Shown: positions 3,781 through 58,732 of the stretch, piece by piece
Layout of the letters: each line of letters starts with the position of its first letter
Numbering within the stretch: the stretch's first letter is position 1
Source: Stegostoma tigrinum
Taxonomy: Eukaryota
NCBI RefSeq assembly: GCF_030684315.1
Contig: NC_081354.1
Coordinates: forward strand, 64,392,321-64,456,320
Direction: 5' to 3'
Length of the DNA stretch: 64,000 bases
Made by a program: the position numbers and the translations under genes
Notes under the pieces: model-generated
What the model was told of the DNA's origin: nothing
The model's input: the letters and a program-made list of their open reading frames with translations, nothing else
Database searches by the model: none

Positions 3781-4006
3781 GATAACAAAGGGTGGAGCTG
3801 GATGAACACAGCAGGCCAAGCAGCATCTTAGGAGCACAAAAGCTGATGTTTCGGGCCTAGACCCTTCATCAGAGCTCTCTGATGAAGGGTCTAGGCCCGA
3901 AATATCAGCTTTTGTGCTCCTGAGATGCTGCTTGGCCTGCTGTGTTCATCCAGCTTCACACTTTGTTATCTCGGATTCTCCAGCATCTGCAGTTTCTATT
4001 ATCTCT
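3781..4006 (+). mobile_element. Non-autonomous fold-back derivative of the PLE 3' end (hairpin 3781-3970 plus 36-nt tail)
   Basis: ~94-bp inverted arms homologous to 39738-39830, each with the ctgatgaaggg..cccgaaa motif. Flanked by the duplication caagcaattt(t/c)tat (3767-3780, 4007-4020). Confidence 0.92.
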
Positions 4007-4339
4007 CAAGCAATTTCTATTCCTTGTTTGTTCTGCAGTATAGGGAGGCCATAAATACTGTGTAATGAGACAGCCAAAATTAATGCATTTGCATTTTCAT
4101 TGTTGGAAATTTGGTTTAGAATGAAAGCTCATCAACAGGAAAATGTGTGTTAACAGGATATCTAAATTAATTTAAATGTATTGAAGGTAATGAAAAATAA
4201 GTGTGCAATTATTTAGTGGTCTACAAATTTGAGATAGAAACATCGAAGCAGTGAGCGGAGCCTTATTGAGGCTTTAAGTTCTTGCCAGTTGGCTGGAGTA
4301 TAGGTCACAGATCCCCGGTGTCTCTTCCTGGGAAGGCTG

Positions 4340-4465
4340 TCTGCTCTTCAGCCAATCACAAGGATACTGGTGCTTATTGTCTGGAATAAGTCACGTGGGT
4401 ACATGTTGTGTCCAGTGAGAGCCGCCACTCAGAGAGGCCGCCAATTCTTTGACTTAGCAGCATAA
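4340..4465 (+). promoter_or_regulatory. Candidate promoter/enhancer motif cluster (CCAAT, E-box, ARE/AP-1-like)
   Basis: agccaatcac (4350-4359), gtcacgtgg (4390-4398) and tgacttagca (4450-4459) in a locally GC-richer stretch with no recognised repeat. Motif evidence only. Confidence 0.35.
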
Positions 4466-5542
4466 TTGAGGAAGCACTGGTTGCTGCCAGAAGGACACCC
4501 TCTGGATTCTTCAAATAAATACATCAAGGATATTAGTCTGCATAGTGGAAAGCCACAGAGGGTCTTGGTAGGAAATTCAGTGGTACTTTCCTTTGAACAA
4601 TGAATGAAAAATGATATTTCACTTAAAGTTGACTTTAATTTCGGAGTAGGCACCTGGAAGTTGGGACTCATTGTTCATTGATAGACCTGATAGCCTCTGC
4701 TGCAAGAGAGCTGTGGAGTTGAATAAATGGGATGCATTTGCAAAAAAAACTCTGCAATGCTAAGTGTTGCTCCTTCGGCAAGTGGAACTGAGGCGGTACT
4801 GTGTAGTTGGCACAAGTAGCATAGCTGCTGTCAAAAAGTACCACACTTCAGGGATGCACTTTTTGCAATAAGCAAACGCAACAGATCAAGTAGTACATAA
4901 AGGGGAATGGGAAGGACATACAGTATTAATTTCAGTAAAGGAAAATTAAAGAATTGTTTGAATTCTTAACAAGAACAACAGAAAGCAAGGAATGAAGAAA
5001 GACCATCTTCCTAAAAAAAAGCCATCTCTTTTTACAGAATATAATCAGTTTTTCATTGATTTTATTTGAGACATTTAGTCTCTGAGAGCATCAAGCATTA
5101 GTTTCTTAAACATAGAGTAGGAACAGTTTATCCTTGAACAGATGCTTCCAATATCATGACATTCCCATGGTCCTAATGGCCTATAAACTATTATATTCTA
5201 ACTCATGTTGGATCATCCTGTATCTATATTTATCTTCTTTTAAACCATCATTTTATTTTAACCAAAAATATATGCAGCTGTTATCACATTTAATGACAGT
5301 CTTGTCCAAGGTTTCTGGGAACATTCTTCTTTGGGTGGTGGGGCGAATTCCTCTAAACTCCCAGCACTTGTTGCTTGTTAATTTTTATGTTTGATTAGTC
5401 TGGTTTGGTTGTACAACGTGACAACACTTTTTTAAAAAAAATCCACTTTCAAGATTCTGATCCTGACAATTTAAGAGTCAGACCAGATTAATTATGCTAA
5501 AAAAAATCAAATTAATGCATTAGGGAACACAAATTGCTCAAG

Positions 5543-5664
5543 AGATAGTAGGAACTGCAGATGCTGGAGAATCTGAGATAACAAGATGTAGAGCTGGATA
5601 AACGCAGCAGCTCTTCTGATGCTGCTTGGCCTGCTGTGTTTATCCAGCTCTACACCTTGTTATC
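5543..5664 (-). mobile_element. Internally deleted fold-back derivative of the PLE 3' end
   Basis: Reverse tail (ggaactgcagatgctggagaat) plus inverted arms gataacaag..../....cttgttatc. Duplication acaaattg(c/t)tcaag on both sides. Confidence 0.88.
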
Positions 5665-6639
5665 ACAAATTGTTCAAGCAGGGATTGGCGGTAAAAACAC
5701 AAATGAGACCAAAGTTACTTAACCTTTTGTGGTTCACTTCCCTTGCAATGCTAGGTGGATTGTGGCAGGAGTGATAGAAATTTGACAAGGAAATGAATGT
5801 GCTAGCTCTTGATTTTATGCTAAAATTTCCTGTTGAATCTCATGAGGGGTAAATTTCTACACTTAACTGAAATGCCACAGATATTGACAAAAAATTAATA
5901 TCACTAACTCTCTGACTACCTTCAGTCAAATAAACATTGTAGAAAATCTGGGATATCAGTCACAGATCAGAGTAAGCCACAATCCAGTTTCATAATTGTC
6001 AATTCACTTTAATAAAATGTACATCAAGTAGCCTTCCCTGTCAGTTGGAGAGTTAAAATATGAATGTTTAACAAGCAACTTCATTTTTAATTGTGCAAAA
6101 GAGCAATAATTTTTAAAATTACATTGTTTTGATCATTCGTGTACCACAGGAGTTTTCTTAAAGCCTTTAGAGAGATGAGCACTGTGGAGGCTGAAATGCA
6201 TCATTTCTCGCAACGTTTCCATGTTGATTTAATGCCCTCCTTTTCTCCTACTCTTTGTGCTATTGTTGCACTGGCCCTGGTGGAGAGTTGTTATAATTTG
6301 TTAACAGTTTAATTAGTCAAATTGTAGATTTGTTGGTGATTCTATTATTAGAAAAATGTCTCGACATCAAACATACTACAAAATGTCAGTCACTATAGCA
6401 AATGACGGATGTAATTAAATATGTTGCGAGTCTTAAACTTAGAAATGCTTGTATTTTTATAAACTCAATTTATAATTTGTACGTTTTAATAAGGAAGGAA
6501 CTATCACCATACATTCGATCTCGGTTAAAATCTAGTATATTTTCTAATTTCTGTCACTCAATATATGATATCACTAGTATATTATATATATTTATTTTTC
6601 CCTATTTCTACAGCCACTTATCCTGCATGCTGTCAAAAT

Positions 6640-6860
6640 AGATAATAGACAACTGGTGCAGGAATAGGCCATTTGGCTCTTTGAGCCAGCACCACCATTC
6701 ATTATGATATGGCTGATCATCCCCCATCAGTATCCTGTTCCTGCCTTATCCCCATAACCCATGATTCCACTATCTTTAAGAGCTCTATCCATCTCTTTCT
6801 TGAAAGTATCCAGAGACTTGGCCTCCACTGCCTTCTAGGGCAGAGCTTTCCATATATTCC
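6640..6860 (-). mobile_element. CR1-group LINE 3' fragment
   Basis: Reverse of the typical end (aggcagtggaggccaag...aagggttatgggga...atcagccat...aatggcctattcctgc). Confidence 0.75.
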
Positions 6861-15700: not shown

Positions 15701-15789
15701 ATTTATCTTCTCTCAGAATTCTTCTACCTCATTTGTATATATATTTGCTGGGATTCACAAAGTATTTTCTCAGATGTGAACTCATTAAA

Positions 15790-16277: not shown

Positions 16278-16950
16278 TAGAATATTGCAGCATGGAAACA
16301 GACCCTTCAGTCCAACCAGTCACTGCCAACTATGTTTCCAAACTAAACTAGCCTCACCTGCCTGCGCATGGCTCATATCCCTCCAAACCTTTCCTGTTCA
16401 TAAACTTATATAAATGTCTTTTAAATGTTGTAAATGTGCCTGCATCTACCACTTTGGCAGTTGATTCCACACATGACCCACTGTGTCGAGAAAAAATGGT
16501 TGCCTCTCATGTCCTTTTTAAATCTTCCACCTCCCACCTTTGAAATATGCCCCCTAGTTTTGGACTCACCACTGGAGGGTAAAGACCTTGATGTTCACCT
16601 TTTCCAAGCCCCTCATGATTTTATAAACCTCAATAAGGTCACCCTTCAATCTCCTATGCTCCAGTGAAACCAGTCTCAGGCTTTCCAGTCTTTGTCTATA
16701 TCTCAAACTCTCCATTCCCAGCAACATCCTGGTAAATCTTTTCTGAGCCCACTCTCCAATTTAACTTTATCCTTCCATCAGTAGGACGATCAGAACTGTA
16801 CAGAGTACTACAGAGAAGCCTCACCAATGTCCTGTACAACCTCCATATGACATTGCAACTCCTATACTAAAAGGTCTCAGTAGTGAAGGCAAGCATGCTA
16901 ACCACTTTCTTAAGCACCCTGTCAACATGTGATGTACATTTCAAAGACTT
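16278..16950 (-). mobile_element. CR1-group LINE 3' fragment
   Basis: Reverse complement resembles 20650-21505 (catggaaacagaccctt...; ttaaatgttgta..gtgcctgcatctaccact). Confidence 0.8.
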
Positions 16951-18339: not shown

Positions 18340-20415
18340 CAAACAGCACAGATCCTGTTGAGTGGTAAAGATAGGCTAGAAAGGGCCAGCTATGAAAAGG
18401 ACTTATGAACAGAAACCTGCCAGGCACATTAACTACAGCATTTCTTTTTTTTGCATAAAGCGGAGTGAGTGATCAGGAGCAATGTTAGCCCTCTGAAGAC
18501 TCAAAGTGGGGATATTGTCAGTGACAATGAGGAAATGGTAGACATATAGAATAATAATTTTACCTCTATCTATGGTAGAAAAGGAGGATAGCTTGTCAGA
18601 AGTCCTGAGTAAATTAATAGTGGGTCTTAAAATTAACGTAAGTAAAACATTGGTAATTAATGGACATAAAGAGTGACATATTCCCAGGACCTGACAGTTT
18701 CCATCTGAGAATGTTAAAGTAAGTAGGGGAGCACATTGTAAATACACTCACTATAATCTTTCAGCGTTCCAAAGATAGAATTGTTCCTCTGGATTGGTAA
18801 ATTGCACATGACATTCTGCTTTTCAAGAAGGGTGATGGAGGATGACCAGGGAATTACTGACCAGTTAGTCTACAGTCTGTGATGTGAGTTTGTCAGAGTT
18901 TATAATCAAGGATGAGGTAACTGAAATCCTTGAAAATTTTCTTATCGGGAAATCCAGTATGGATTCATGATGGTGGGTCATGCCTGACAAACCTCATGGA
19001 ATTTTTTGAAGTGGTGACTAAGGTGGTGAACGTGAAATGTTGTTTCTGAGGATTTCTAGAAAACATTTGGTAAAGTCTTACATAACAGACTGTTAACTGA
19101 AGTGAAAGCCAAAGGAATCGAGGGCAAATGACTGACATGGCTGGTCAGTTAATTGAGTAACAGGTGACAGAGTAGTGATATTTGATAGGTGCTCCACTTG
19201 ACAGGATGTGACCAGTGGTGTCCAACAAGTGCCCGTGTTAGGGGTCTCAATTATTCACACAATTAATTCATGACTCTGCTAATGGCGTAGAAAGTCACAT
19301 GTCCAAATTTGCTGATGATACAAAGTTAGGCAGCATTGTAAACAGTGTAGATTAGAACAGCATTCCAAAGGGGTATCGATAGACTAAGTAAAAAGGAATT
19401 GAATATGAGCAAGTGTGAATTTATCCATTTTGGACTAAGGAAGAATAAACCAGGGTACTTTCTGTGAAGTTAAATGAAGTTAAATATAATGGATGTGAAA
19501 AGTGACTTGCAGTCCATGTGCATAATCTTTAAAATACCAGGACTAGGTACAGAAAATAATCAAGAAAGCGAATGCAATGTTAGTCTTTGTATTGAGAGGA
19601 TGGGAGTACAAGGATGCAGAAATTATGCTGCAGTTGTACAAATCTGAGTTAGATATCAGCTAGAGTACTGAGCGCACATTTGAGCACCACATCTTAGGAA
19701 GGATATATCGGTCTTGGAGGAAGTATAATGTAGGTTTACAAGACGTTACCTTGACTTCAGACCCCAGGAAAGAGCAGACATTATACAGGCTGGGTCAGTT
19801 TTCTCTAAATTTAGAAAATTATGGGGTGAGCTGGTCAAAGTCTTCAAAGTATTAACAGAAGAAGACAGGGTAGGTAAAATTAAGTATTTCCACTGGTTGG
19901 GGATTTCAGAACTAAGGAGCAGAGTTTGAGAATTAGCAATAGACCATTCAGGAGAGTTGTTATGAAGCTCTTGCACACACAGAGTAGACATTTGGAACTC
20001 ACTTCCATAAATGGCAGTGAAATCTGGATGAGTTGTTAATTTTAAATCTGAGATAGCTAAATGCTTGTTAAGCAAAGGTATTAAGGTATATGGAGTTAGG
20101 CCACAAATAAGCCATGAACTCATGCCATGGCAGATTGTGGGTTTGAATTCAATAAAAAGGAAAATCTGGAATTAGGAATCTAATGATGACCGTGAAACCA
20201 TTTCCAATGGTCAGAGAAACCCATCAGGTCCTTACGGGAAGGAAATTGCCATCCTCACCTGGGCTGGTCTGTGTGTGACTGCAGACTCCCAGCAATGTGG
20301 TTGACTCTGGGCAATTAGGAATGGGCAATAAAGGGTGGCCGAGCCAGTGACACCCTCATCTTGTGAATGAATAAATGAAAAACAGGCTCAAGGGGCTGAA
20401 TATCCGACTCCTGTT
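18340..20415 (+). mobile_element. Long degenerate CR1 ORF2 remnant (RT region to 3' end) with a SINE inserted near its end
   Basis: Remnants gggaattactgaccagttagtct (GNYRPVSL), gtgaccagtggtgtccaacaa (VTSGVPQ) and aaatttgctgatgatacaaag (KFADDTK). Confidence 0.85.
20125..20373 (+). mobile_element. SINE family B copy (5' truncated)
   Basis: Shares the core tctggaatta.ga.tctaatgatgacc...gggaaggaaa.tgccatcct.acctg...gggcaataaa...tgaatgaat with the 28513, 44901 and 60322 copies. Confidence 0.8.
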
Positions 20416-20579: not shown

Positions 20580-21505
20580 GAGCAAAAATAAACATTTTGT
20601 AATATGAGGTGCTGCATTTTGATAAGGCAGATCAGAATGTATATACTTAGTGGTAAAGTCCTATGGAATAAAGAGACTGCTTGTCTTTTTTGGTCAGTGC
20701 ATTGAGTACAAGAGTTAGGAGGTCCTGTTGTGGCTGTACAGGACATTTGTTAGGCCTCTTTTTGGAATACTGTATTCAGTTCTGGTCTCCCTCCTGTAGG
20801 AAAGATGATGTGAAACTTGAAAGGGTTCAGAAAAGGGATAGCAGGACCTGCAGATGCTGGAGAACCTGAGATAACAAGGTGTAGAGCTGGATGAACACAG
20901 CAGGCAAAGCAGCATCAGACGAGCAGGATAGCTGACATTTCGGGTCTAGGCCCGAAATGTCAGCTATCCTGCTCGTCTGATGCTGCTTTGCCTGCTGTGT
21001 TCATCCAGCTCTACACCTTGTTATCTCAGGGTTCAGAAAATATATACAAGGATGTTGCCAAGGTTGGAAAATTTGATCTATGGGGAGAGGCTGAATAGGC
21101 TGGGGCTATTTTCCTTTCATTGCAGGCTGAAGGGTGACCTTCGAGGTTTATAAAATCATGAGGGGAATGGATAGGGTGAATAGCCAATGCCTTTCCCTAG
21201 GGTAGAGGAGCCTAAAACAAGAGGGCATAGGTTTAAGTTCAGAGGGGAAAGGTTTAAAAGGGACCTAAGGGGCAAAGCTTTTACACACTGGGTGGTGAGT
21301 GTATGGAATAAGTTGCCAGAGAAAGTGGAGGACGCTGGTATAATTACAACATTTAAGAGACATCTGGATGGATACATGAATTGGAAGGGTTTAGAGGGAT
21401 ATGGGCCAAATGCTGACAAATGTGTCGAGATTGATTGAGGATATATGTTTGCATGGATGAGTTGCTTGGAAGGGTCTGTTTCCATGCTGTACATCTGTAT
21501 GACTC
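20580..21505 (+). mobile_element. CR1 3' fragment interrupted by the PLE palindrome
   Basis: LEYCIQFWSP...KLERVQK before the insertion; TRGHRFK...WNKLPEKVEDAG after it. Confidence 0.88.
20835..21027 (-). mobile_element. Fold-back PLE derivative (perfect 80-bp arms) inserted in a CR1 fragment
   Basis: Arms 20865-20944 and 20951-21030 are exact reverse complements. 13-bp TSD agggttcagaaaa (20822-20834, 21028-21040). Confidence 0.93.
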
Positions 21506-28512: not shown

Positions 28513-28827
28513 AGGAGAGGTGATGGCCAAGTGGTACTATTGTTAATCCAGAGACCGAGATAGCATTCTGGAGACATGGGTTCAAATCCTGCCACGGCAG
28601 ATGGTGGAATTTGAATTCGATAAATATCTGGAATTAAGAGTCTAATGATGACCATTTGTTGATTGTTGGGAAAACCCCATTTGGTTCGCTATTGTCCTTT
28701 AGGGACGGAAACTGTCATCCTTACCTGCTCTGGTCTCCATGTGACTCCAGACCAGCTCCCTGAGCAGTTAGGGATGGGCAATAAATGTTGCCTAGTCAGT
28801 GACACCCTCATCCCATGAATGAATTTA
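28513..28827 (+). mobile_element. SINE family B copy (tRNA-like head)
   Basis: Head gtgatggccaagtggta..gggttcaaatcc, shared core, and tail cccatgaatgaat. Confidence 0.85.
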
Positions 28828-30043
28828 AAAACAACAGTATTATAAAGGATATTATTGTACAGGGCTTCAACTCTCCTGATTAAATAGGATTCTAATGATT
28901 CATAAAGTTAATTCTTCCACAGTTGATTTTGGAGTTGGGCCCTCTGAGTCAACGCATTGTCTGTAGTGATGGTAATCATCACTCTTGAAGCAGTAAGTTT
29001 GACAATTGATATATAAATATAGATGGTATATTTAATGTGTTTAAATATATGCTGCTTTTTTCAAGTAACATGCAATAACATTTTGAGTATCAAAGTTAAT
29101 TCAGCACAGAGGCTCCAGTGAAGAAAACAGTCTTTGAGGCTGCAGTGATCACAGGCTATGGGATGAGTAAAATCAGATTTTACATTGCTGCAGAGTGATC
29201 TACAGTGCTATTAGTCACATGAATACTCCATGCGCAATGCTGCAAAATACAGCATCGTCAGCTCAGCCAGCTTGGTGAAGTACCATGGATGGAAATGTAG
29301 TTAAATTCAATACCTAGGATTAGTTTAAATATGGATTTTTATTTGACTGAACGTGGTTAGACAATATATATAGAAATCCAACAGGAGGAAATTTGTTGAC
29401 GTGCTTGTTTTGAATTTGACCACACCCCTCTCAGTGCAGACTGTTGAGGGTGTCACTGCATTATATGTAATGCTGGAGCTGTGATTGACTAACAGAAGCT
29501 GCAGGGCATCTGGCATTACGTATTAATGCAGATGAACATGTTTCTTGAGGTGGACTGCAGCATTGCCGAACTCACTTTTCCTTTGATGTTCGATTTAAAA
29601 GGAATGGATGGAGACAATAAAGTAGGAGATTGTAGCGCTGGCCCAAGGAAGCATTGTCTATATACATATCTGTTTTAGAATCAATTTAATATATTTTTTG
29701 TAGGAGATATGCTTGAAAACGGGAATAAAACATCTGAAGTGTGTCACTGCAGTGCAGCATTTCTTTGAGCTGTTCTGTTAGTAGACTTTTGACAGGCAGG
29801 ATTTTTGACATTCACTCTTTTAAATATCCTGCAACTTTATTCAAAAATGTAACCTTTTCTCGACAATATTCATGGTGCTAGAATTCAAAACAATTAGTCA
29901 TTTTAAGACAGTGACTGCATTAAATATTGTAATATTTGAATGTTCATACTGCATTTGAGTATGATTAGCTGTTTTCATTTTGTACCAGGATAGAGGTATG
30001 GTCTGAGGGAATGATATGCTCACCCTAATTAATGCCCCATTGA

Positions 30044-33750: not shown

Positions 33751-34105
33751 AGGTGTACAAGGTAATGAGAGGCATGGATAGAGTCGATAGCCAGAGACTT
33801 TTCCCCAGGGCAGGACTGACTGCCACGAGGGATCATAGTTTTAAGGTGTTAGGAGGAAGGTATAGAGGAGACGTCAGAGGGAGGTTCTTCACCCAGAGAG
33901 TTGTGAGCGCATGGAATAGTTTACCACTGGAAGTCGTGGCAGCAGAGTCATTAGTGACATATAAGCGACTGCTGGACATGCACATAGACAGCAGTGAATT
34001 GAGGGGAATGTAGGTTAGGTTATTTTATTTTTGGATTAGGATTATTCCATGGCACAACATCGTGGGCCGAAGGGCCTGTACTGTGCTGTACTTTTCTGTG
34101 TTCTA
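33751..34105 (+). mobile_element. 5'-truncated CR1 3' end, same young subfamily as 1-813
   Basis: Nearly identical to 460-813. Confidence 0.92.
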
Positions 34106-34534: not shown

Positions 34535-34853
34535 AGATTAGAATAGATTCCCTCCAGTGTGAAAACAGGCCCTTTGGCCCAACAAGCCCACACTGCCCCT
34601 TGAAGAATCCCACCCAGACCTATCCCCCTATAACCCACACACCCCTAAACACTACGGGCAATTTAGCATGGCAGATCCACCTAGCCTGCACATCTTTGGA
34701 CTGTGGGAGGAAACCGGAGCACCGGAAAAAAACCCACGCAGACACGGGGAGATTGTGCAAACTCCACACAGACAGTCGTCCAAGGCTGGAATCGAACCTG
34801 GGTCCCTGGCATTGCAGCCTCACAGTGCTAACCACTGAGCCACCGTGCCACCC
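34535..34853 (-). mobile_element. HE1-like tRNA-derived SINE
   Basis: Reverse complement of the 32794 family, with complete 5' end gggtggcacggtggctcagtggttagc. Confidence 0.92.
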
Positions 34854-36245
34854 CAAGGAAAACATCTATCTACTCTCTTTTCATAGTTGAATTGCTTCAG
34901 CCCAGGCAACATCTTGGGAAATCTCTCTGTACCCTCTCTAATGCAATTGCATCATTCCTATAGCATGACAATCAGAACTGCACACAGTACTGTGGCTGTG
35001 GTCTAAATAATATTATTAAGTACAGCTCTATCAGAGCCTCCTTGCTGTTCTATTTCATGCAACGACTAACAAAGGCCAGCACCCCATATATGGTCTTAAC
35101 CACCATATCTACCTGTCCTGCTGCCGTCAAGGATCTACGGACATGCACACAAACATCTCTGTGATCCTCTATACTTCCTCCGGTCCCAACATTCAACTGT
35201 ACTTCCTTGCCTTGTCGGTCCTCCCAAAATACATTACCTTTTACCTTTGAGGATTAAATTCCATTTGTCACTGTTCAACCCATCTGACCAGCTGGTCTAT
35301 ATTGTCCTGTAGTCTAAGGCTTCCCTATTCACCACTTAATCGAGTTTCATGTTGTCTGTGAATGTACTCAAGATACCGTCTACTTTCTTGCCTAGATCAT
35401 TAATGCAAGCAACAAACAATAAGGGACCCAGCAGTAAACCCTGTGATATGCCAATTGACACATGTTCCTGTCACAAACACACCCTTTCAAACATCGCCAT
35501 CTTGCTTCCGTCTCTGAATTAATTTTGGAACCAATTTGCCACATTGCTTTGGATTTCATGGGCTGTTAGCCTCTTAACTAATCTGCCATGCAAGATCTTG
35601 TCAAAAGCCTGACTGAAATTCATGTAGACTACATTAATTGCATTTATACTCATCCACCCACTCGGTCACTTCCTCGAAAAAATCAATCAAGGTTATTAAG
35701 CATGATCTCCCCCTTACAAAGTGATGTTGACTATTCTGATTAATCCTTGCCTCTCCAAGTGGAAATAATTCTGTCCCTTCGGAATTATTTCAATTGTTTT
35801 CCTGCCACATATGTTAAGTTCAGTGGCCTTTAGTTTCCTTGTTTATTTCTACCATTCTTCTGGAAAACAGAACCTCTAGTCATCTGTGGCCAGAGATGGT
35901 GTGAAACTTAATGTCAGAGCCCCTGTAATCTCCTCCCTACAGTAACTTGGGCTGTATCTCATTTGGGCCTGGGAACTTATCTTTTTTCAAGCTTGTTAAA
36001 ACTCGTTCAAGTACATCGCAATTCCCCTCCCTTGATTACTGTACCCCACATCATCCTTTGCTGCAGCAAATACAGATGTAGAGTCTCTCATTTCAATACC
36101 TCCGCTATGTCTTCCTGCTCCACACATGGATTGACATGTTGGTCCCTAACAAGCTCTATTCTTTCTCTATTCTCTATTCTCCAGCATCTGCAGTTCCCAT
36201 TATCTCTGATACTATTTTAACCTCACTGCGAAGCCTCTTCCAGGG

Positions 36246-39200
36246 ATGCCTAACCTGAAGAAGTTACCCTCCTCCCTCCAGACCAACTTCAGGGAATCTC
36301 TCTCCCATTGCAACTCTCTTGTAATCTCTTCGGCCTTGAAACTGCTCGACCATGTCCTGAAGCAAACCAGGTACCACAGCCACATCACCTTCCTCAGCAC
36401 CTGCCTACGGAACCAGATCATCCCCAAGGGACTACAGTCCACATTTCAGCCTTCCCAATTTTGCCCCAACCGTGACCACCTCTACACCCACAGCATTCAG
36501 ACCCTTCAGAAGCGTTTCTCCCTGCGAGTCCTGAAACAGACACTTGCAGCCATGCGCCGGCACCTCCAGGCACTGCAATCCAGCCTGCCCCAGCTCAGAG
36601 CCTCCCTCTCCCAGACCTGCAAAGGACCTCTGCTGTTTTTTATCCTCCGCAGGATCCACAGACTGAACACCCAGTTTCACTCAGCTTTGCTGGACACCAA
36701 AAATTGTAAGTACAACCAACTCACTGGCCCCTGCCACCCACAAGAGGATTCCTGCGCCTCCCAAATCCTGAGTCTGTCCCTGCCCCTCCCCCACCATGCA
36801 CCCGCCGCCATTGACCATGAGGACATGGCCGGAGACCCCACCGATGACGTCACATCCACCTCCGCTGGCCACAGAACTTCCGGAACCGCTGCTGCAGTCA
36901 CCACCTCCACTTCCAGGTACAACACCCCACACACCACCCTCACCGCAGCTGCTGCCGCCCACCCCGATCCTCCAACCGCCGACGGAATCCCGCCCATGGC
37001 CGACGGAATCCCGCCCATGGCCGACGGAATCCCGCCCACGGCCGACGGAATCCCGCCCACGGCCGACGGAATCCCGCCCACGGCCGACGACCTCATCGCC
37101 CCGCCCACAACCTCCGCAGCCAGCAACCCCAGAGAAGACAGCCACACTGAGCCCTGCCGCATCTTCACCGTCCCCCCAGACCTCCCACTGACTGAGGAAG
37201 AACGGTCAGTCCTTAGTAAGGGGCTCACCTTTTGTCCCCCTACAACCACACATCAACGAATACCAGTCACGGTTGGACATAGAGCAGTTTTTCCGCCGTC
37301 TTCGCCTCCATGCCTACTTCTTCAACCGGGAACCTAACCCTCCTTCCACTGACCCCTTCACCCGCTTCCAACACAAGTCCTCCTCCTGGACACCACCCCC
37401 AGGCCTCCTACCCTCCCTCGACCTCTTCATCTCCAACTGCCGTCAAGACATTAACCGCCTCAACCTCTCCACCCCTCTCACCCACTCCAACCTCTCCCCC
37501 GCAGAATGGGCAGCCCTCCGCTCCCTCCGCTCCAACCCCAACCTCACCATCAAACCCGCAGACAAGGGTGGCGCAGTGGTAGTATGGCGCACTGACCTCT
37601 ACATCGCCGAGGCCAGACGCCAACTCTCTGACACCACCTCCTACCGCCCCCTCGATCGTGACCCCACACCCGAGCACCAAACCATCATCTCCAACACCAT
37701 TCACAACCTCATCACCTCAGGGGACCTCCCACCCACAGCCTCCAACCTCATTGTTCCCCAACCCCGCATGGCCCGTTTCTATCTCCTTCCCAAAATCCAC
37801 AAACCTGCCTGCCCTGGTCGACCCATCGTCTCAGCCTGCTCCTGCCCCACCGAACTCATCTCCACCTATCTGGACTCCATTTTCTCCCCTTTGGTCCAGG
37901 AACTCCCCACCTACGTCCGTGACACCACCCACGCCCTCCACCTCCTCCAGGACTTCCAATTCCCTGGCCCCCAACACCTCATATTCACCATGGACGTCCA
38001 GTCCCTATACACCTGCATTCCGCATGCAGATGGCCTCAAGGCCCTCCGCTTCTTCCTGTCCCGCAGGCCCGACCAGTCCCCCTCCACCGACACTCTCATC
38101 CGCCTAGCTGAACTCGTCCTCACACTCAACAACTTCTCTTTTGACTCCTCCCACTTCCTACAGACTAAGGGGGTGGCCATGGGCACCCGCATGGGCCCCA
38201 GCTATGCCTGCCTCTTTGTAGGTTACGTGGAACAGTCCCCTCTTCCGCACCTACACAGGCCCCAAACCCCACCTCTTCCTCCGGTACATTGATGACTGTA
38301 TCAGCGCCGCGTCTTGCTCCCCAGAGGAGCTTGAACAGTTCATCCACTTCACCAACACCTTCCACCCCAACCTTCAGTTCACCTGGGCCATCTCCAGCAC
38401 ATCCCTCACCTTCCTGGACCTCTCAGTCTCCATCTCAGGCAACCAGCTTGTAACTGATGTCCATTTCAAGCCCACTGACTCCCACAGCTACCTACAATAC
38501 ACATCCTCCCACCCACCCAGCTGCAAAAATTCCATCCCCTATTCCCAATTCCTCCGCCTCCGCCGCATCTGCTCCCACGATAAGACATTCCACTCCCGCA
38601 CATCCCAGATGTCCAAGTTCTTTAAGGACCGCAACTTTCCCCCCACAGTGATCGAGAACGCCCTTGACCGCGTCTCCCGTATTTCCCGCAACACCCCCCC
38701 CCCCCCCCCCCCCCCCCACAACCGCCCTAAGAGGATCCCCCTCGTTCTCACACACCACCCTACCAACCTCCGGATACAACGCATCATCCTTTGACACTTT
38801 CGCCATTTACAATCCGACCCCACCACCCAAGACATTTTTCCATCCCCACCCCTGTCTGCTTTCCGGAGAGACCACTCTCTCCGTGACTCCCTTGTTCGCT
38901 CCACACTGCCCTCCAACCCCACCACACCCGGCACCTTCCCCTGCAACCGCAGGAAATGCTACACTTGTCCCCACACCTCCTCCCTCACCCCTATCCCAGG
39001 CCCCAAGATGACATTCCACATTAAGCAGAGGTTCACCTGCACATCTGCCAATGTGGTATACTGCATCCACTGTACCCGGTGCGGCTTCCTCTACATTGGG
39101 GAAAACCAAGCGGAGGCTTGGAGACCGCTTTGCAGAACACCTCCGCTCAGTTCGCAACAAACAACTGCACCTCCCAGTCGCAAACCATTTTCCACTCCCC

Positions 39201-39597
39201 CTCCCATTCTCTAGATGACGTGTCCATCATGGGCCTCCTGCACTGCCACAATGATGCCACCCGAAGGTTGCAGGAACAGCAACTCATATTCCGCCTGGGA
39301 ACCCTGCAGCCTAATGGTATCAATGTGGACTTCACCAGTTTCAAAATCTCCCCTTCCGCCACCGGATCCCAAAGCCAGCCCAGTTCGTCCCCTCCCCCCA
39401 CTGCACCACACAACCAGCCCAGCTCTCTTCCCCAATTCCCCCCCCACCCCCACCCCACCCACCCACCCACTGCACTGCATCCCAAAACCAGTCCAACCTG
39501 TCTCTGCCTCCCTAACCGGTTCTTCCTCTCACCCATCCCTTCCTCCCACCCCAAGCCGCACCCCCATCTACCTACTAACCTCATCCCACCTCCTTGA
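36246..39597 (+). pseudogene. Disrupted single ORF of the Penelope-like element (about 1100 codons when repaired)
   Basis: ORF-track pieces 36246-37337, 37273-38292, 38609-38794, 39008-39214 and 39079-39597 join after removing single extra bases in homopolymers (~37230, ~38237, ~39102, ~39188). One in-frame TGA at 38792-38794. Confidence 0.88.
36978..37089 (+). repeat. 21-bp coding minisatellite (gccgacggaatcccgccca[c/t]g, 5.3 copies) encoding ADGIPP(T/M)
   Basis: Directly visible tandem units; frame-preserving. Confidence 0.95.
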
Positions 39598-39739
39598 CCT
39601 GTCCGTCTTCCCTGGACTGACCTATCCCCTCCCTACCTCCCCACCTATACTCTCTCCACCTATCTTCTTTACTCTCCATCTTCGGTCTGCCTCCCCCTCT
39701 CTCCCTATTTATTCCAGTTCCCTCTCCCCATCCCCCTCT

Positions 39740-39769
39740 CTGATGAAGGGTCCAGGCCCGAAACGTCAG
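39740..39769 (+). ncRNA. Minimal type-I hammerhead-ribozyme-like motif in the PLE 3' end
   Basis: CTGATGA-A-[gggt ccag gccc hairpin]-GAAA-C-GTC contains the CUGANGA and GAAA boxes, stem II and a GUC cleavage triplet. Minimal hammerheads are an established feature of PLE termini. Stem I is very short and activity is untested. Confidence 0.7.
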
Positions 39770-41637
39770 CTTTTGTGCTCCTGAGATGCTGCTTGGCCTG
39801 CTGTGTTCATCCAGCCTCACATTTTATTATCTCTATTCTTTCTCTAATTGTTTTCTTGCCCTGAGTACACTCTCAAATTGCTTTTAATTTTCTTTAATGT
39901 TACCCACTCATGTCCTCTCTTTCTCAATTTCTTCTTTCAGCAACCCATGACCTTTCTAAACTGCTTTAGGACAATCACTGTTTTAAACCTTTTGGATATA
40001 TCATAACTTCTTTTTTCGTTATCTTATTCTGTACATTCCTTGGCACCCTGGATTATTTGGTTTTAATGGTCCCACCCTTCAATTTTACAGGAACATCTTA
40101 GCCCTGCACACCCACTTTCACCTCTTTAAATGTCTCCCATTGCTCTGTGGATTTTACACCAAGTGGTTGCTCCCAGTCCACTTTGGCCAGATCCTGCCTT
40201 GTCTCATTGAAATAATCTTCCCCCAATTCAGGACCTTTGTGGTTCATTTTTGGCCTTTTCCAAAATTACTTTAAAACTTAGGGTCACTGTTTGGTATACT
40301 TAGCTTTTTGCAGGATTGCATCTGCTTCCTCAGCACTTCACTTTGGCATTGACTGTGTGATGACCATCTTGTCCCACTTCTTCCTGAGCATTTTCTCGAA
40401 GACTTCCTAGACTGCTTCAGTGTGGCCCTTCTCTTTTCATCTCTACAAAGGCGTTCAGTGTGTTGCCTGAGTTCCTTGAAGCATGCTGTCTCCCAGGTCA
40501 TGCCGTTCTTAAACAGTTTTTCACTTCACAATGCCTAATACAAGGACATCTACTATCGGTTGTAGCCACTATGCTCCTTCGCTTAGGAGATGCAGGCTGG
40601 CGTGAAGTAATGCTAACTAGTGATTAAGCTGTGTTTGCCGCTCATGATTTAGACTACCTGCTGATGCCTGTAGCTGCAGAACAATACATTTAATGGTGAC
40701 TGTTCATTATAATACTTGACACAAAATCGGCGTTTTGCTGGCATCACGTTGCACCATCATTGGGTAATTGCACATCATGAGGTCTAAACTCACTTTTCGG
40801 GCAGTATCCAATTTAGCCCCCTGTGCAGAATCAATCCTATGATAATGTGAAAATATATGTCAAACATTTTGGAAATATGTAATTAAAACAGGTATTTTTG
40901 GAAACTTGCAGAAGGCATATTGGCATATAAAGAAAAAAATGGATGAGTTATCATGAAAGTCTGTGTGCAATATATTTCTGTTACATATTGATTTTATTTG
41001 TTTTGTATTTTACTGTCTCACATGCAATAACAGTTAGATAGATCAGACCCAGCAACTCCTAATGGCTTCCTTGTCAGTTTTAAAGTAACTTTGCAGGGGA
41101 AAAATACCTTTGTTTGAAAAGTAGCTTGTGCTGAAAGTATTTGATTATTCTGAATTGTCATGAAGTTATTCAGTCAAGCCACTAGTTTATCCTAATTTTA
41201 TTCTCCCGTTCAAGTATTCGTATGATTTTGGATAACTTCAGCTGTACTGTTTGAAGGACACGTATTTTGGGTGGACATTATTATAGTCAGACTGAAGTGA
41301 TTTTTTTTAAATTAACAGCAACATTTCTTCCAGTCCAAAGTGGCTGCCTGGCGTGGTGACACCTGTCTCGTGAACGGAGAATTCCATTTATCTGTATCAA
41401 AAATGATAAACAGTTTTAAAATACCAACGGATTAACTGTTGAAAAAAGAAGTTTAATGTAGTAGCCAGCTTTAGGCCAGGAGTTTGATGGACTTAGCTTG
41501 GTTTCCAGTGAGAGTTGCCTATTCTTGTTGTTCTGTACAAACTAATACTTACTGTTTACTGTTTCGAATTCCTGATTACAGTGTATTCCACAAGTGGAGT
41601 AAAGCACATGCTAATTGATGGTGTTTCTCTTTTACAG

Positions 41638-44900: not shown

Positions 44901-45228
44901 GGGGGAGATAATGGGCTAGTGGAACTGTTATTGGACTGTGAATCCAGTGACCCAGTAATGTTCTGAGGACCTAGGTTCAAATCCAGCTATGTCAGATAGT
45001 AGAATGTAAATGTGACAAAAAAATCTGGAATTAAGAGTCTAATAATGATCGTTAGTCCATTGTCGATTGTTGGGAAAAACCCATCTGCTTCACGAATGTC
45101 CTTTCGGGAAGGAGACTGCCATCCATACCTGGTGTGGCCTACATGTGACAGCTGACCCACAGCAGTGGGGTTAGTTCTTAACTGCCCTGTGGGCAATAAA
45201 TGTTGGGCCTCATCCAACGAATGAATTT
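44901..45228 (+). mobile_element. SINE family B copy
   Basis: Same head, core and tail as the 28513 copy. Confidence 0.85.
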
Positions 45229-50255: not shown

Positions 50256-50354
50256 AAAGGAAACTCAGCCCTTCACATTGCATCTCTGGCTGGACAAACC
50301 GAGGTGGTAAGAATTCTAGTGAAGCAGGGAGCCAATATCAACTCTCAATCCCAG
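50256..50354 (+). CDS. ANK2: Ankyrin-2 coding exon ([33 protein letters not shown])
   Basis: Acceptor tgtctctctttctag|AAA. 99 nt, matching ANK2 [33 protein letters not shown]. The donor at the expected position is CAG|gcaagt (GC-AG type). Confidence 0.93.
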
Positions 50355-52699
50355 GCAAGTAACTGAAACATGTCACAATCGACAATACTCTACAATTGGC
50401 CTAAAACTGGCAACACACAAGTTGCCTTCTATCAAGCAGTGTCATACTTTTTGATGTTAGCTCTTCTCCTAGTATCACTTTGCCATTCATCAATATGTGA
50501 ATTTATGAACCAGTTCTGAACCTTGAGTTTCTATTTCGACTGACTTGTCTTTAAAGCATTAAGCAAATGTATTGTAACAGTACTTCACCATTCAAAGTCT
50601 TTGAAAAATTGCTAGAGAATGATTTTTCATATATCCATGGGCACTGTTCAGTGCTTTTGTGTCTTTCCTATCATTTTGATAATTGAGCCTGCAAATTAAG
50701 AATTGCAGCCAATGTGGGACTGGGGAGTTCAGTGGAGACTGACTCTTCGCCCACAGCAATCAACGTGCTAACAGCTGACTTACAAACTGATAGGTTGATT
50801 ACAAGCCTTCAGAATGGAGTCTCCCCCTGTCAGAAGCTGCCAGCCCAGCAGAAGAGGTTAAGTGGCTTTCTTTCGCTTCTCAGTAGGAGGTTGTGTGGAA
50901 AAGGAGTTCAGGGGAGTTGGTGGCAATGGCAGGGATGTGGTTTTAAAAGACTGTTGCCATTCCTCCCATTTGGGCCTTCATTTGCTCCCAGGATGTGGAA
51001 GACTGATTCCCCGGCATCACCACCCGTGATAAACAGGCAGACAGGTTGCCCTGATTTCCCAGTCAGGAAACCAGCCACTTTTCTTCCCTGCCAGAGAGGT
51101 AGGTAATTGGGCTGGTGGTGAGTTGAGACAATTAAATTTGTGAGTTGATTGACCAATATAGAGCATTAAATGTTGGCAAATTGAGAAAATCCCCAGGGGG
51201 TCCCTCTAATCCAGCACTTAATTAGTGAGAGGTGGGGTGGTGAGAAGGGGCAAGGAGTCTCTCCAGAACTAACTTATCCAATTACTTTCTGATCTTACCA
51301 CTTCTCTTGACGACAACGTGGTGGAAAAATTGCCATTCAATATCTTTACAAATTGCTTATAAAGGCTCTGAGTTTGGAGTATGATTTGCAGTTTACAAAT
51401 TGCAGCCCTTATCACACGTTGTTATCCTTATAATATGCACTTGAAAGGGCATCTTAACCTGTAGCAAAAACAAAATAGTAGTTCGATACTACCTTGTCAC
51501 ATAACCTTGAGTATCCTTTAGGTCTGTGATTTATATTCTCTCCAAGTTATTTGTGTTTCCGATGCTTATTGTTTCACATTAAATGTTATTGCAATCCAGC
51601 TCCATGAGTCTATGCATATATATGTATTGTTTGCAAGTACATAATTTTCTCAAGTATCAGCAATAGTTAGTTAAGAAATTTAGCAGAATCTATCTTGCAG
51701 TTAATAATCCCTCAGCACTTAGTGGCAGCTGCAGAGCAGAGTGTAATATGATTCCCCAGGAGACATTTTAACTTTCACCATCATGCAGACAGCTGGTACG
51801 GGGATTAACCCCACTCCTCCCCGACAGACTGTGCCTTATATTCCTTCCCAGTGTGAGAAAGGTAACACAATAGTCATGGGCTGTTGAACCTTGAAGTCAA
51901 TTGGACAAATTAATTTGACAAAGATAGACTTGAGGAAAAGTTTACACAATGTGTTTGCCACTGTAACATTGAGCAATATATTCTGGTATAAACCAGGAAG
52001 AGGCCAAAAGTGACCACCATATTGGTAGTGACACCGTAGCCTCTGCTCAATATCATAGCCACAAGCCCTGAACCTTGTCCAGGTCTTGGGCTCATTTAGT
52101 ATTACCAACAAACTATTTGGATGCTCTTTAGCATCTTACTGGATTGCTGCAGTGGCAAATTAGCTGCCTTTTCCATGGAGCTACATGGAATGGAGGGGTG
52201 AAGATGAGATTAGGCTGACATCTAGCAGAGTTTGGTGAGTCCAGAAGGAAAATTAATGCTGCATTTAGTCTTAGTGAAATAGTTTTTTTTATCTTGAAGA
52301 AGCAAAAACTCGCTTTTGCTGAAAGGCTTCCACTGATCCCTTTTAAGCCACCAAGCACTGACCCCAGAAGCAGATCCTAATTGGCTAAGATGGTGGCCTA
52401 ATGCTGACATAGTTTGGTTAAAAGACCTGCTTTGGTTGGCTGCTGTGTTATCGTAGTTCAGGTTGTGGCTGTTAGGCTTTCTAGCTCTCACCATTCACAC
52501 CCCCTCAGCTTCCACCCATCGCTTCCACAGAATTTCATACTCTTTATTCTACCTCCATGCCAACACACGCCTCTTTCACCCACCCAAGTCTATGACGACT
52601 TAAACCCACATGTCACCTCCATAATCATTCACCCAGTATTCATCATGAGCAGACCTCAACAGCAATGTATAAATGAAAAGAAAACTAAAACCAATCCAA

Positions 52700-52888
52700 G
52701 ATAACAAAGTGTGCGGCTGGATGAATACAGCAGGCCAAGCAGCATCTTAGGAGCACAAAAGGCTGACGTTTTGGGCCTAGACCCTTCATCAGAAATTTGT
52801 GCTCCTAAGATGCTGCTTGGCCTGCTATGTTCATCCAGCTCCACACTTCGTCTCGGATTCTCCAGCATCTGCAGTTCCCATTATCTCT
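52700..52888 (+). mobile_element. Fold-back PLE derivative with partly deleted right arm and 36-nt tail
   Basis: Same arms and tail (attctccagcatctgcagttcccattatctct) as 3781-4006. A hammerhead-like motif remains only on the - strand, with GAAA changed to AAAA. Confidence 0.9.
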
Positions 52889-54659
52889 AATACAGCTCCC
52901 ACTCATTCACACTCAGTACTAAAATAACACTCCATTTGTGACAGCCATTCAAAACCTTTGAATCTCTTCGGATGTTTAATCTCTGACAGAAATCAACAAA
53001 TTTGTATTCAGACCCCACATCAAAGGCAGCAAATGTTGTAATAGCTTCTTCATGCTGTCAATCACGCTGGAAATTCAGAAACCCCTACTGAGACAATTGA
53101 AGCTCTTGAAACTCTGTTAAGTATTCATCATGGCATAATATCCCTTGGAGTAACGTGACCAAAGAATTCTTCTAAAACTGCAGGGCAAGATAGCATTTTT
53201 CTTCTTCCTAATCTCCATCAGATGGGCTGTCAATCAAAGCAATTCAGGAGAGTTTTAACTCCTGACAGTTTAAGCCTATTTTAGTTTTAAAGGGTGAGGG
53301 GTTTGGTGGAAATTTTCTTAAAAATGACAGACCTTATCCACCCTTCAAGAATGTTTTATAACTACTCCATAAATTTGTAACCCCAGTGTGGATTAATGCC
53401 CTTGCAATAGGTGCTGAATGTCTGTTTGAAACTCGGCATTAGTTCAAATGGCCCAGCTGAGTTTGGATTTTCTTCCCTGTGAGATTCACAGTCTACCCCT
53501 TCTCATTGCGAGTAAAACAGTTAATCTGTCAGAGGAAGTGGGGTCAGGTATTCGGTTTCACCAGCTCACCATTTGTATAGCTCCACATGCTTTTCGAAGT
53601 TTGCAATAAATTTGGCTTTTTATGTCCAATTTTAACTGTCACACTTTTTAAGGAGATTGTCAAGTACTTCGAAAAGGTGCAAAGGAAATTTGCCAGAATC
53701 GTAGCAGAGATAACGAAATCCAGTTGTGCAGAGAAACTAGAAATTTTTATGGCAGAGTGAAAAGGCTTTTATCTTTGGGTGTGCCTGTATTAAACCTCAC
53801 AAGATGCATTTACGTAGCATCTTTAACGTCATAAATCATCCAAAAGTGCCTCTTAGGAGTGATATTGAACAAAACTTGACTGAAGCCATGTAAGGTGATG
53901 CTACTTTTAGTAACAGTACTGGAGTTGAAGAGGTAGAATTTGAAGATCAGCTTATGAAAGATAGAGAAGAGAAGAGGCTAAGAGGTTTAGAGAGCACATT
54001 CCAGAGCATGTGAACTGGATGTCTAGAGTTAGGGCTGTTGGTTCTGTTGCAAAAGTAATTAGGGAATCCCTGTGATTAATGCTAACAAAGAACCTGGATC
54101 ATGGAAATGCATTGTTCCATAACAATATTGCTTCAATAACCTCTTAAAAATGCACTTGAGCTATTTTTCACTTTCTATGCCATATGCTAATAAATGGTGC
54201 TTGATTCAAAATTGAATTGGCAGCGTTGTCACCCCAATAGCTTGAAAGAACAGCAAAGTGCCATCTTAAGAGATCTACCACTGGAAGTGCAAATTCCATT
54301 TTAATATGCAAAACATGATCTGAGAACCATGATGACCTTTTCAGTTTGGAACAATATGTGTTGTGCATACTTGGGCTATTTTCTTAGGTGTTGGTACCAG
54401 AGAAGTCTCACAATATAAGTTTTAGATTTTGTTTGTGTGGAGTTATTTACATAAACGTGAGCAAGGGGAGCATGTTGTAGAGTAGCCTTAAGCGGGTGAT
54501 TTATAGAGCAATACCAACCTGATCCTCAAACAAGTATGTGAAAGTGAAAATTAGTCACATAGATTTGTTGTTTTAAATAACTAAAAACAATTTTTTAAGC
54601 TCTTCACTTTCTTCACATGTTTATTGTGAATAGCAAGCTAATTTAGTTAATTAACATCC

Positions 54660-56430: not shown

Positions 56431-57142
56431 ACCAAATTCACACAACTTAATTTCCTCTTTTATGATTGCCACGGGGCAACCATAAACCAAAATAACCAAA
56501 TTCACTGGATAACCCAAAATGAAAAAAAGTTCAGTTTGCCACTTCTGGGAGCTTTTGATGTTAAGTCAAGTTAGCGCCAACCCAAATTACACAATGATAT
56601 ATAAAATAATAAGTCTGACTTTAAATGGTCTATACAACAGTGTTACAGTTTATGCAGCCACAAATATTTACATCACTGTCTTCCCCAGTATGGCATTATA
56701 TAGCTCTTTAGTTCCAAAATATGTTTTATTCATAAAGGGTAGGTTGGGACTCTTATCTGATAACATGTTCACATTTGAGATAGGTGGGTGTGATTATTAG
56801 CAAGACAGACTTCTATAAGTCCTCAATCCCCACAACATTTTGAATGATATGGCTTTCCAGAGTTTTTTTAATCAATCTGCCCAACCAATAACGCCCCAAT
56901 CCACGGTTTACCCATTCTGAGAAAATATCCAATTAATTAGTGTCTCTGAGCTATTTACAAGGCTTTCCAGATTTAGATCATTTTCACCAGCTTACAGACT
57001 TACTTTAAAAGCTTTAAAAGCTCCTTTCCTGCCAAACAGAAAAAAAATCCTTAAGAATTATTCTTTACTTCTCGAAAGAATTTTGTGTGGTCCTCATTCT
57101 ATAATGCTCTGCTTTTTCTTTGTGTTTTCATCTGGGCTTTTT

Positions 57143-57298
57143 CCCATCTGGTCCACCAAGGCCCTTCAGGGAAGGAACTCTGCCATCCTCATTATCTGGC
57201 CTACATGTGACTTCAGACCCACAGCAATTTGGTTGCCTCTCAATTGCCCTTTGAAATCACCGAGCAAGTCACTCGGTTGTGTCAATCACTATGAAGTC
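57143..57298 (+). mobile_element. SINE family B core fragment
   Basis: cccatctggtccac...agggaaggaactctgccatcctc..tctggcctacatgtgacttcagacccacagcaat. Confidence 0.7.
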
Positions 57299-58246
57299 TC
57301 CTCTGTTGTAGCTCTCTTCTGTGTTTGGACGTATGGCTTCTTTCTAAACATCCATCTCATTGGCAATGTTTTCAGGCCAAGAGTCAATAGACCACATGGA
57401 CTAATATTTCATATTATCCAAAAAAAATTACCATTGATCCCTTTAAAATGTAATGGAAACTCTTGGAATTCAAGGAAAACAGCATAAACAGCTTTATTGG
57501 ACATCTCCCTCTGGTTCTGTTGCTATTACTGTTTGTTTCAGCACAAAAAAGAAATCAACATAAATTCCATAAAGACACATGCAGACTCATTGACAGATTT
57601 GCATTACTGCAGCTGCTGTCGGTCAGACTGGGCCACAGCATTTCCATCCAGAGTAGATTCCAACACAAAGTTTGCCGAAGTTACACTCGTTGCAAGACAG
57701 TTGTTTATTTCCATCAATTATTTTAAAGCAGCAATAACTGGATACCTGTTGAAAGTTGGATTATTTAAAAGAAGCATATTCAATTTGGGTTTCCTTTTAA
57801 CAAGGTTAAAAAATAGATCTGCAACAACGCCTGATCTTGCAGACATCACCAAATCAGTAAAGGAGAGTAGATTAATGCTTTGTTAATGTGTGTAATTCTA
57901 TATATTTTTTTCTCCTCCACAGTCAGCCCTGTGTAGTTGTTGGATGAAATAACATGTAGGTTTAGATGTGATGCTGCTGATTAAGCATTCTGTTCCAGCC
58001 GATGTCTCCTGTAGGTACTGCATCCTATCATGAACTCTTCAGAGCTTTCGGAATAATTGTTATGTGCGTTGTTCGCACCTTTGCAAGTAAGCTGAGAGTG
58101 TTTTAAGTTTTATTCACCACTGCAACTGGAAGAAACATGAGCAGCACTTTAAAAAATGTCAGTTGTGGGGTTTACCACAAAACAGCTGGCCACCACTAAA
58201 TGGTTTTTAGCTTTTCTTAAAAAAAATTAACCTATTTTTAATAATC

Positions 58247-58346
58247 AACCTGTTCAGAGATTGCTCTAGAGGTGTGTAATAACAGTTGAGACTTGAACCT
58301 GGGCCTCCCAGTCTAGGGTAGGGACACTACCACTGTGTCACCAGAG
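58247..58346 (-). mobile_element. Short tRNA-derived SINE remnant
   Basis: The - strand reads tggtgacacagtggtagtgtccct...cccaggttcaagtc (A and B boxes). Confidence 0.5.
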
Positions 58347-58657
58347 TGGACATCATCAGTTGAAATGTGTTAGTTAAGTGCAAGCAGGAACTATCATTTA
58401 ATGTTTATTGAAGTGTGCAGCCCCTCTAAATGTTTTGCACATCCATGCATGGTAAACTGAAAGGCTGACTTGTATATGGGCTACACAAGGACTTTTGGGT
58501 TGTTGAGTAGCCATGCAAATTAAAGGTGACCATTTGTGAGTAGATATTTTAAGTAGAAATTGATAATTATACTAGTCTCCGAAGCTGTTCCTAATGTTGG
58601 TTTCAACTCCCTTACCAAGGTGGTGTCCTGCCCTTGAAAACAGCCAGTCTTGGTATC

Positions 58658-58732
58658 TAGGCTTGAAACGTCAGCTTTGCTGCTCCTCTGATGCTACTTG
58701 GCCTGCTGTGTTCATTCAGCTCTACACCTTGT
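58658..58732 (+). mobile_element. Single-arm PLE 3'-end fragment
   Basis: taggcttgaaacgtcagctttgctgctcctctgatgctacttggcctgctgtgttcattcagctctacacctt, flanked by agtctt(g/a)gtatc (58646-58657, 58733-58744). Confidence 0.85.

Follow-up and report, generated by a model that had tools for sequence, protein, structure and literature searches.

The locus described here raises the question of whether very short, mostly hairpin-forming pieces of a Penelope-like element (PLE) are a mobile family in their own right or by-products of the machinery that moves the element. We analysed a stretch of 64,000 nucleotides from Stegostoma tigrinum (NCBI RefSeq assembly GCF_030684315.1, contig NC_081354.1, positions 64,392,321 to 64,456,320 of the forward strand; hereafter the window, with positions counted from its first letter). 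It holds a full-length PLE, part of a second copy and five short insertions, here called stubs A to E. These five pieces are very probably independent PLE truncation products. Taken as a whole, the likely explanation is that they are extreme 5'-truncated insertions made independently by the normal integration machinery of Neptune-type PLEs belonging to at least two subfamilies. Judged from this window, the stubs are dead ends and neither a self-copying family nor a new class of mobile element. They are real but of an ordinary sort, adding one more example to a PLE insertion type already known.

Self-BLAST of the window and alignment revealed five insertions of 75–225 bp, all made of PLE positions 39736–39833, with arms of 36–98 nt from the element's terminal part; together they occupy 1.3% of the window. 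In four of them (A–D) two arms meet head-to-head as an inverted duplication, and one end bears a 33-nt tail. Copy A (3781–4005, plus strand) consists of an inverted arm (PLE 39738–39831), a direct arm (39736–39833) and the tail; its fold is blunt and its arms differ at 4 of 94 sites. Copy B (5543–5664, minus strand) combines an inverted arm starting at 39777 with a tail arm starting at 39798, its fold shares 1 nt and no hammerhead remains. In copy C (20835–21027, minus strand) the inverted arm starts at 39748 and the tail arm at 39757; the fold lies at hammerhead helix II with a 3-nt microhomology, and the arms are identical at 74 of 74 sites. Copy D (52700–52887, plus strand) has an inverted arm from 39739, two untemplated nucleotides and a tail arm from 39772. 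Copy E (58658–58732, plus strand) is a single arm running from 39753 to about 39827, without inversion and without tail.

The tail corresponds to the PLE's own 5' start (36176–36206, plus strand, and 2 nt). In A–D it follows the element's 3' end, as in a tandem or circular template, and it marks the junction of such a template between two cDNA start sites, which we call site 1 (near end) and site 2 (far end). A profile search recovered the same copies with 10 arm and 5 tail matches at E < 1e-6 and, the next match lying at E = 0.24, no further ones in the window. A preliminary description of this DNA had recognised five insertions derived from the PLE terminus only, four of them inverted duplications, with or without a tail of about 36 nt; all of this is confirmed, except that the tail measures 33 nt and is the element's own start. 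By predicted folding, A, C and D form long hairpins (–110 to –190 kcal/mol), B a weaker one and E none. B and C also gave Rfam microRNA-precursor matches (5571–5670 and 20890–21005) below the gathering score, and a microRNA identity was rejected for these generic hairpins.

Target-site duplications (TSDs) flank four of the stubs: A (3766–3780/4006–4020; 15 bp, 1 mismatch), B (5528–5542/5664–5678; 15 bp, 1 mismatch), C (20822–20834/21028–21040; 13 bp, no mismatch) and E (58646–58657/58733–58744; 12 bp, 1 mismatch). The full-length PLE has one as well (36154–36169/39831–39846; 16 bp, no mismatch). TSD scores were 10–16, against a maximum of 9 among 300 random position pairs. Copy C is inserted in another repeat; in three of three paralogous copies of this host repeat the target sequence is single, in contrast to its two copies around C. 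The earlier view of the copies as separate insertions thus stands, on the TSDs of four of the five and on the empty-site paralogs of C, although the duplications span 12–15 bp and not 12–14 bp.

Six diagnostic sites split the copies into one subfamily with the full-length PLE, A and D (subfamily 1) and another with B, C and E (subfamily 2). The tree, a small sample of 10 rows and 96 columns from one window, supports this split at 99/97, with hairpin and plain copies on each side. Monophyly of the hairpins, with the eight hairpin arms forced together, was rejected (approximately unbiased (AU) test, p = 0.034). Since the full-length PLE is frameshifted and B, C and E belong to the other subfamily, it is not their parent. 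The preliminary description had assigned all five to a parent PLE at 36170–39830; A and D group with that element.

The junctions are equally individual. No junction recurs among the four hairpins, and no two copies are alike in fold or length. The folds nevertheless do not scatter at random along the element, as all nine arms start within 39736–39798. Random fold points without hairpin-specific clades had been named beforehand as the mark of ordinary truncation and inversion products; inside the window this refutation applies, since the folds all differ and there is no hairpin clade, although the arm starts are confined to this short interval. Descent from a short master element was rejected for this window on the absence of shared junctions among the four hairpins and on the AU test.

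We also compared the stubs with known classes of short elements. Miniature inverted-repeat transposable elements (MITEs) have inverted repeats flush at both ends, a fixed short TSD and a uniform size. The stubs carry a tail outside the inverted arms, their TSDs measure 12–15 bp and their sizes range from 75 to 225 bp, and they were not classed as MITEs or retro-MITEs on form. No tRNA-, 5S- or 7SL-derived head was found in the five copies, and they were not classed as short interspersed elements (SINEs). By the published definition, a retrozyme is built of units in tandem, and every unit has its full hammerhead (bioRxiv 10.64898/2026.07.22.740005; PMC7761336). The stubs resemble the reported retrozymes lacking long terminal repeats (non-LTR) in being short, non-coding, related to PLE terminal repeats and present in a cartilaginous fish, but unlike these head-to-tail tandems they are head-to-head, non-tandem and mostly devoid of a hammerhead. 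The minimum for a non-LTR retrozyme is a pair of head-to-tail units with a complete hammerhead apiece, and the candidate was rejected: the window contains no tandem units of the stub, its only tandem array being a 21-bp repeat inside the open reading frame (ORF) of the PLE. With differing folds, no hairpin clade, no tandem units and both hammerhead core boxes in one copy of five, the retro-MITE or retrozyme-like class proposed in the preliminary description finds no support in the window. The alternative it offered, stereotyped short products of PLE reverse transcription, does.

The full-length PLE carries a minimal type I hammerhead-like motif at 39740–39767 (plus strand), located by pattern search, with a predicted cut after 39767. 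It has both core boxes, an extra nucleotide before a 4-bp helix II and a palindromic helix III, and a helix I of only 2 bp. It shows the features listed by Cervera and de la Pena 2014 (PMC4209133), namely the core boxes, the extra nucleotide, the G10.1-C11.1 pair and the palindromic 15.2–16.2. The loose pattern alone is weak, with 2 matches against 0.28 expected, and Rfam hammerhead families gave no match in the whole window or in 39700–39850. Only one of the five stubs keeps both core boxes, with an altered helix III. Calling the insertions hammerhead-derived was an overstatement, because three of the five (B, C and E) are without the first core box. Moreover, six of the nine arms read through the predicted cut, and cleavage hence does not set most of the ends. 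The same 2014 study traces thousands of dispersed single minimal hammerheads and close opposite-strand pairs to truncated PLEs, and copy A is a pair of this kind. The pairs described there lie about 100–700 bp apart, with no shark named in the part available, whereas three of the five copies here have lost the first box.

An inverted, 5'-truncated copy with a 30–40 bp tail at one end is reported as a standard PLE insertion (PMC8557442, PMC3846280, PMC8969392), and the pseudo-LTR (pLTR) is described as an insertion variant rather than part of the consensus (PMC8557442, PMC8969392). In keeping with this published signature, we find inversion in four of the five stubs, the one-sided 33-nt tail in four and variable TSDs in four. 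The stubs share with the insertions described in these sources the 5' truncation, the head-to-head arm, the one-sided tail of 30–40 nt, the variable TSD and the minimal hammerhead of the terminal repeat. However, the inverted arms reported there sit on ORF-bearing or longer copies with pLTRs of 180–220 bp, whereas here the whole insertion consists of two arms of 36–98 nt. Also unlike the published insertions as reported, stubs account for five of the window's seven PLE insertions, their inverted arm mostly exceeds the tail arm in length, and the full-length copy has no upstream pLTR.

How, then, would such stubs be made? A biochemical precedent comes from a purified PLE protein of Anolis (Poseidon_Ac, PAc), which is reported to nick and extend both target strands and to start at two positions, one on either side of the tail (Frangieh et al. 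2024, PMC11167929). According to the same report, hammerhead cleavage is not required, RNA from the ORF start is, and the protein is modelled as a dimer (PMC11167929). These start sites predict the arm ends seen here: all four tail-less arms end within 2 nt of 39833 (site 1) and all four tail arms at the end of the tail (site 2). The arms that read through the predicted cut likewise match the uncleaved templates used in vitro, as reported (PMC11167929).

What we see directly are element-derived arms, a one-sided tail, TSDs of staggered cuts, differing folds and two subfamilies; the steps that would produce them are our reconstruction. The RT-endonuclease (RT, reverse transcriptase) would bind an RNA spanning the junction of 3' end, tail and ORF start and nick both target strands 12–16 nt apart. 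One target 3' end would prime at site 2 and the other at site 1, possibly aided by partial pairing between target and RNA. Both cDNAs would stop within about 100 nt, either at the 5' end of the RNA or at the C-rich tract that begins at 39735; under the former option a junction near the mRNA start would be used and the enzyme would run off. The two cDNA 3' ends would then join head-to-head through 0–3 nt of microhomology. Use of site 1 alone would give a plain stub such as E or a long copy. In L1 twin priming, both target strands prime cDNA and the cDNAs join by microhomology, which yields an inversion; the second L1 primer lands internally and inverts without duplicating. Here, by comparison, both primers would start 33 nt apart at the 3' junction, giving an inverted duplication. 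As the route to the inversion we lean towards twin priming. In three of the four hairpins (B, C and D) the tail-less arm extends further 5' than the tail arm, and a simple fold-back of a tail-primed cDNA is disfavoured because these tail-less arms hold sequence that the tail arm lacks. At a single site, 39783, the two arms of A show the same difference as that between D and the long element, which is what two templates would produce.

The short size needs an explanation of its own. Of the seven PLE insertions in the window, five extend at most 98 nt into the element and the other two 3658 nt and at least 1137 nt; truncation at a constant rate is rejected (P about 1e-4). None of the nine arms crosses 39736. 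Three arm ends fall at 39736–39739; two of them come from one insertion, and the clustering was not taken as significant. Immediately upstream lies a C/pyrimidine-rich 3' region (39330–39735, plus strand) that no short arm enters and whose cDNA would be G-rich. For the scoring intervals that begin at 39710 and 39720, a G4Hunter-type score lies between –1.6 and –1.9, and its magnitude is at most 0.44 from 39740 on. Both run-off at the mRNA 5' end and a stall at the C-rich tract fit the observed lengths.

The target sites resemble the RNA just beyond each start site, a weak and post hoc hint. Targets at site 2, registered on the element, match the RNA continuation at 22 of 48 positions against 13.4 expected (p = 0.007; post hoc). 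With A–C alone the figures are 16 of 36 against 10.1 (p = 0.026; post hoc), and before re-registering, when B and D were off by one base, p was 0.25. At site 1, with the distal copy of the TSD and without D, we count 24 of 60 matches against 15.2 expected (p = 0.009; post hoc); including D gives p = 0.0008, but its flank may be element sequence. We further observed that the TSDs of A and B (3766–3780 and 5528–5542) have an 8-nt word in common and similar downstream bases in element orientation, and that both TSD regions resemble the element sequence after the tail. The likeness of these two TSDs makes a target preference possible.

Several points weigh against integration by this route. The sample comprises only five copies from one window, and for D a TSD was looked for and not found. 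In D (52694–52893) both ends match the element 5–6 nt past the usual start sites; shifted priming or a target deletion may account for these ends and for the absent TSD. The asymmetry of the arms could also arise by later deletion at palindrome centres. Private variants are common to both arms of one hairpin (one site in A, one in B and four in C), a pattern that self-copying or gene conversion would explain no less well than two RNAs of a single source. The protein studied in vitro belongs to a lizard Poseidon element and not to a shark Neptune; the Anolis study, as far as reported, saw no homology between target and start site where we find a weak resemblance, and inverted stubs are not discussed in the text available (PMC11167929). 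Finally, the 5' end of the RNA and a stall at the C-rich tract are inseparable within the window.

The rival that survives best keeps the same PLE origin and lets the inversion arise by self-priming, or fold-back, of a single cDNA or antisense template, with endonuclease resolution at the tail boundary. Self-priming on an antisense template has been published for PLE inverted repeats with junction palindromes (PMC3846280), and tail formation has been ascribed to endonuclease resolution (PMC8557442), as given in these sources. C folds at hammerhead helix II, A at the centre of a near-perfect palindrome, and the private variants common to both arms are what copying of one strand would leave. However, in three of the four hairpins the inverted arm holds sequence that is absent from the tail arm, the helix II loop of C is oriented as in the tail-less arm, and the junction of A offers no pairing for a snap-back primer. 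The two start sites reported in vitro also account for the arm ends without a resolution step. We consider fold-back unlikely.

Long perfect palindromes are unstable. The copies might have been inserted as longer or perfectly symmetric palindromes, which then lost sequence from the centre and had their arms made alike by cruciform repair or gene conversion. The asymmetry of B and D, the missing TSD of D, and the identical arms of C next to a more diverged unpaired tail would suit such a history. E, however, starts in the same interval without any palindrome, no arm crosses 39736 although random central deletion of long palindromes would not set such a limit, and the arms of A have not been homogenised. 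This origin appears improbable.

Least probable is that short or hairpin RNAs of a non-autonomous, retro-MITE- or retrozyme-like family are transcribed and re-inserted in trans: the density is high, the size range narrow, a young-looking C has four private arm sites that set it apart from B and E and departs from B at 4 of 31 positions in the tail, as a copy of a decayed template would, and non-autonomous PLE derivatives (MRC1, retrozymes) are reported to exist, but no two copies share a fold or length, there is no hairpin clade and there are no tandem units, both core boxes survive in one copy of five with helix III altered, C may simply derive from a third subfamily, and the stubs stop at the tail, without the downstream ORF-start sequence that the Anolis protein is reported to need, an extrapolation across clades. 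Copy C is an observation of interest in itself, as it looks young (perfect TSD, identical arms) yet is diverged from B and E, most of all in its unpaired tail. This may reflect homogenisation of the arms, a template that had decayed or membership of a third subfamily.

The full-length PLE occupies 36176–39833 (plus strand) and was delimited by ORF pieces, RT homologs, tblastn and its TSD. It is a unit-length monomer of subfamily 1, with one unit and no upstream pseudo-LTR between flush TSDs, and frameshifts and a stop interrupt its ORF. A partial tandem with a second copy, which yields such a pseudo-LTR, is typical of PLE insertions; here the tandem order shows in the tail junctions of A–D. 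The RT region (37192–38794, plus strand, two frames) matches Pfam RVT_1 at E = 0.0084, a hit that falls short of the curated cutoff. Of 4176 candidates, 1050 are homologous to the RT piece at E ≤ 1e-20, with proteins of Chiloscyllium (77% identity) and Stegostoma (82%) as best matches, which points to a carpet shark as the probable host. The post-RT coding region (38795–39330, plus strand) was read by eye from the translations against the motif definitions in PMC8557442, while the last ORF piece gave no match in Pfam. In this by-eye reading of a broken ORF, the RT is followed by a C-terminal GIY-YIG domain with two cysteines between GIY and YIG, as in endonuclease-containing (EN+) PLEs. The piece at 38795–39214 carries a CX4CxxC linker, which falls under the CX2-5CxxC definition of Neptune, one that Nematis shares. 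The order of RT and GIY-YIG and the linker are as described for Neptune EN+ PLEs by Craig et al. 2021 (PMC8557442) and Arkhipova et al. 2013 (PMC3846280). From the linker we call the element Neptune-type, and we prefer Neptune over Nematis since Neptune and Poseidon have been reported from vertebrates.

An in-frame 21-bp tandem repeat (36978–37089; 5.3 copies, 98% match) lies in the N-terminal coding region of this PLE, and a 7-nt stutter at 36163–36176 adjoins its TSD. The element begins and ends at start site 1, with 2 junction nucleotides missing. Speculatively, and from a single copy, a unit-length PLE could represent one lap of a circular or tandem template. Tail, element start and hammerhead region fold no better than shuffled sequences (z –0.67 to 0.81), and no stem-loop was found at the start sites. 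The second PLE copy (62864–64000, plus strand) is 5'-truncated at PLE 37301, 91% identical to the full-length copy and runs off the window; it has a frameshift near 63528 and its 3' end lies beyond the window.

Other repeats fill parts of the window. A dispersed family of about 300 bp with 69–76% identity (20117–20384, 28541–28833, 44902–45208, 57143–57253, 60321–60683) includes one member with a tRNA-like call at 44905–44994 and is probably a tRNA-derived SINE, as judged from this call. A second family of about 300 bp with 77–86% identity (30041–30284, 32794–33092, 34544–34850, 60913–61137) looks SINE-like by eye. Fragments resembling long interspersed elements (283–408, 460–814, 16288–16871, 20702–21489, 32343–32467, 33751–34105), presumably CR1-like, include the host repeat of copy C as well as two pieces of 355 bp that are 94% identical. 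There are also two unrelated inverted repeat pairs (25426–25506/26974–27054, 81 bp, 90%; 6655–6772/46282–46399, 119 bp, 72%).

Five stubs in 64 kb correspond to a Poisson 95% range of one per 5.5–39 kb, and the high copy number supposed earlier is thus probably correct. Extrapolated from a window picked for its stubs and scaled to the 2.96 Gb whale shark assembly, this density would mean roughly 0.8–5 x 10^5 copies per genome. The assembly size is that given for the whale shark, in which PLEs are reported to be present (PMC8455134) and expanded (10.1101/443036). An exact 24-nt scan of bacterial and archaeal genomes, where it could reveal contaminating host DNA, found 0 loci, an RT scan of such genomes gave 63 pattern matches and none confirmed, and a plasmid search yielded nothing. 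We found no description of such stubs in sharks in the literature searched, with Dfam, Repbase and subscription papers lying outside this search.

Near-perfect hairpins of this kind could be mislabelled as MITEs or microRNA precursors, and small RNAs would be possible if they are transcribed. Their main interest lies in the origin of the inverted pseudo-LTRs and one-sided tails of PLEs, for which the published proposals are self-priming or endonuclease resolution, and in the role of the hammerhead. A very short copy packs the two priming sites, its fold and its TSD into 250 bp, which makes the stubs a mechanism test bed of modest value. We put forward, tentatively and as a doubtful extension, that the commonest outcome of Neptune integration in carpet sharks is a stereotyped twin-primed stub. 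A dimeric RT, guided by partial pairing of target and RNA, would prime from both target strands at sites 1 and 2 and run off at a fixed limit about 100 nt upstream, the 5' end of the transcript; the unit-length element would represent a single lap around a circular or tandem template, begun at the same position. If stubs are as numerous as about 10^5, they would be a natural record able to decide between twin priming and self-priming, and the question would become a counting exercise.

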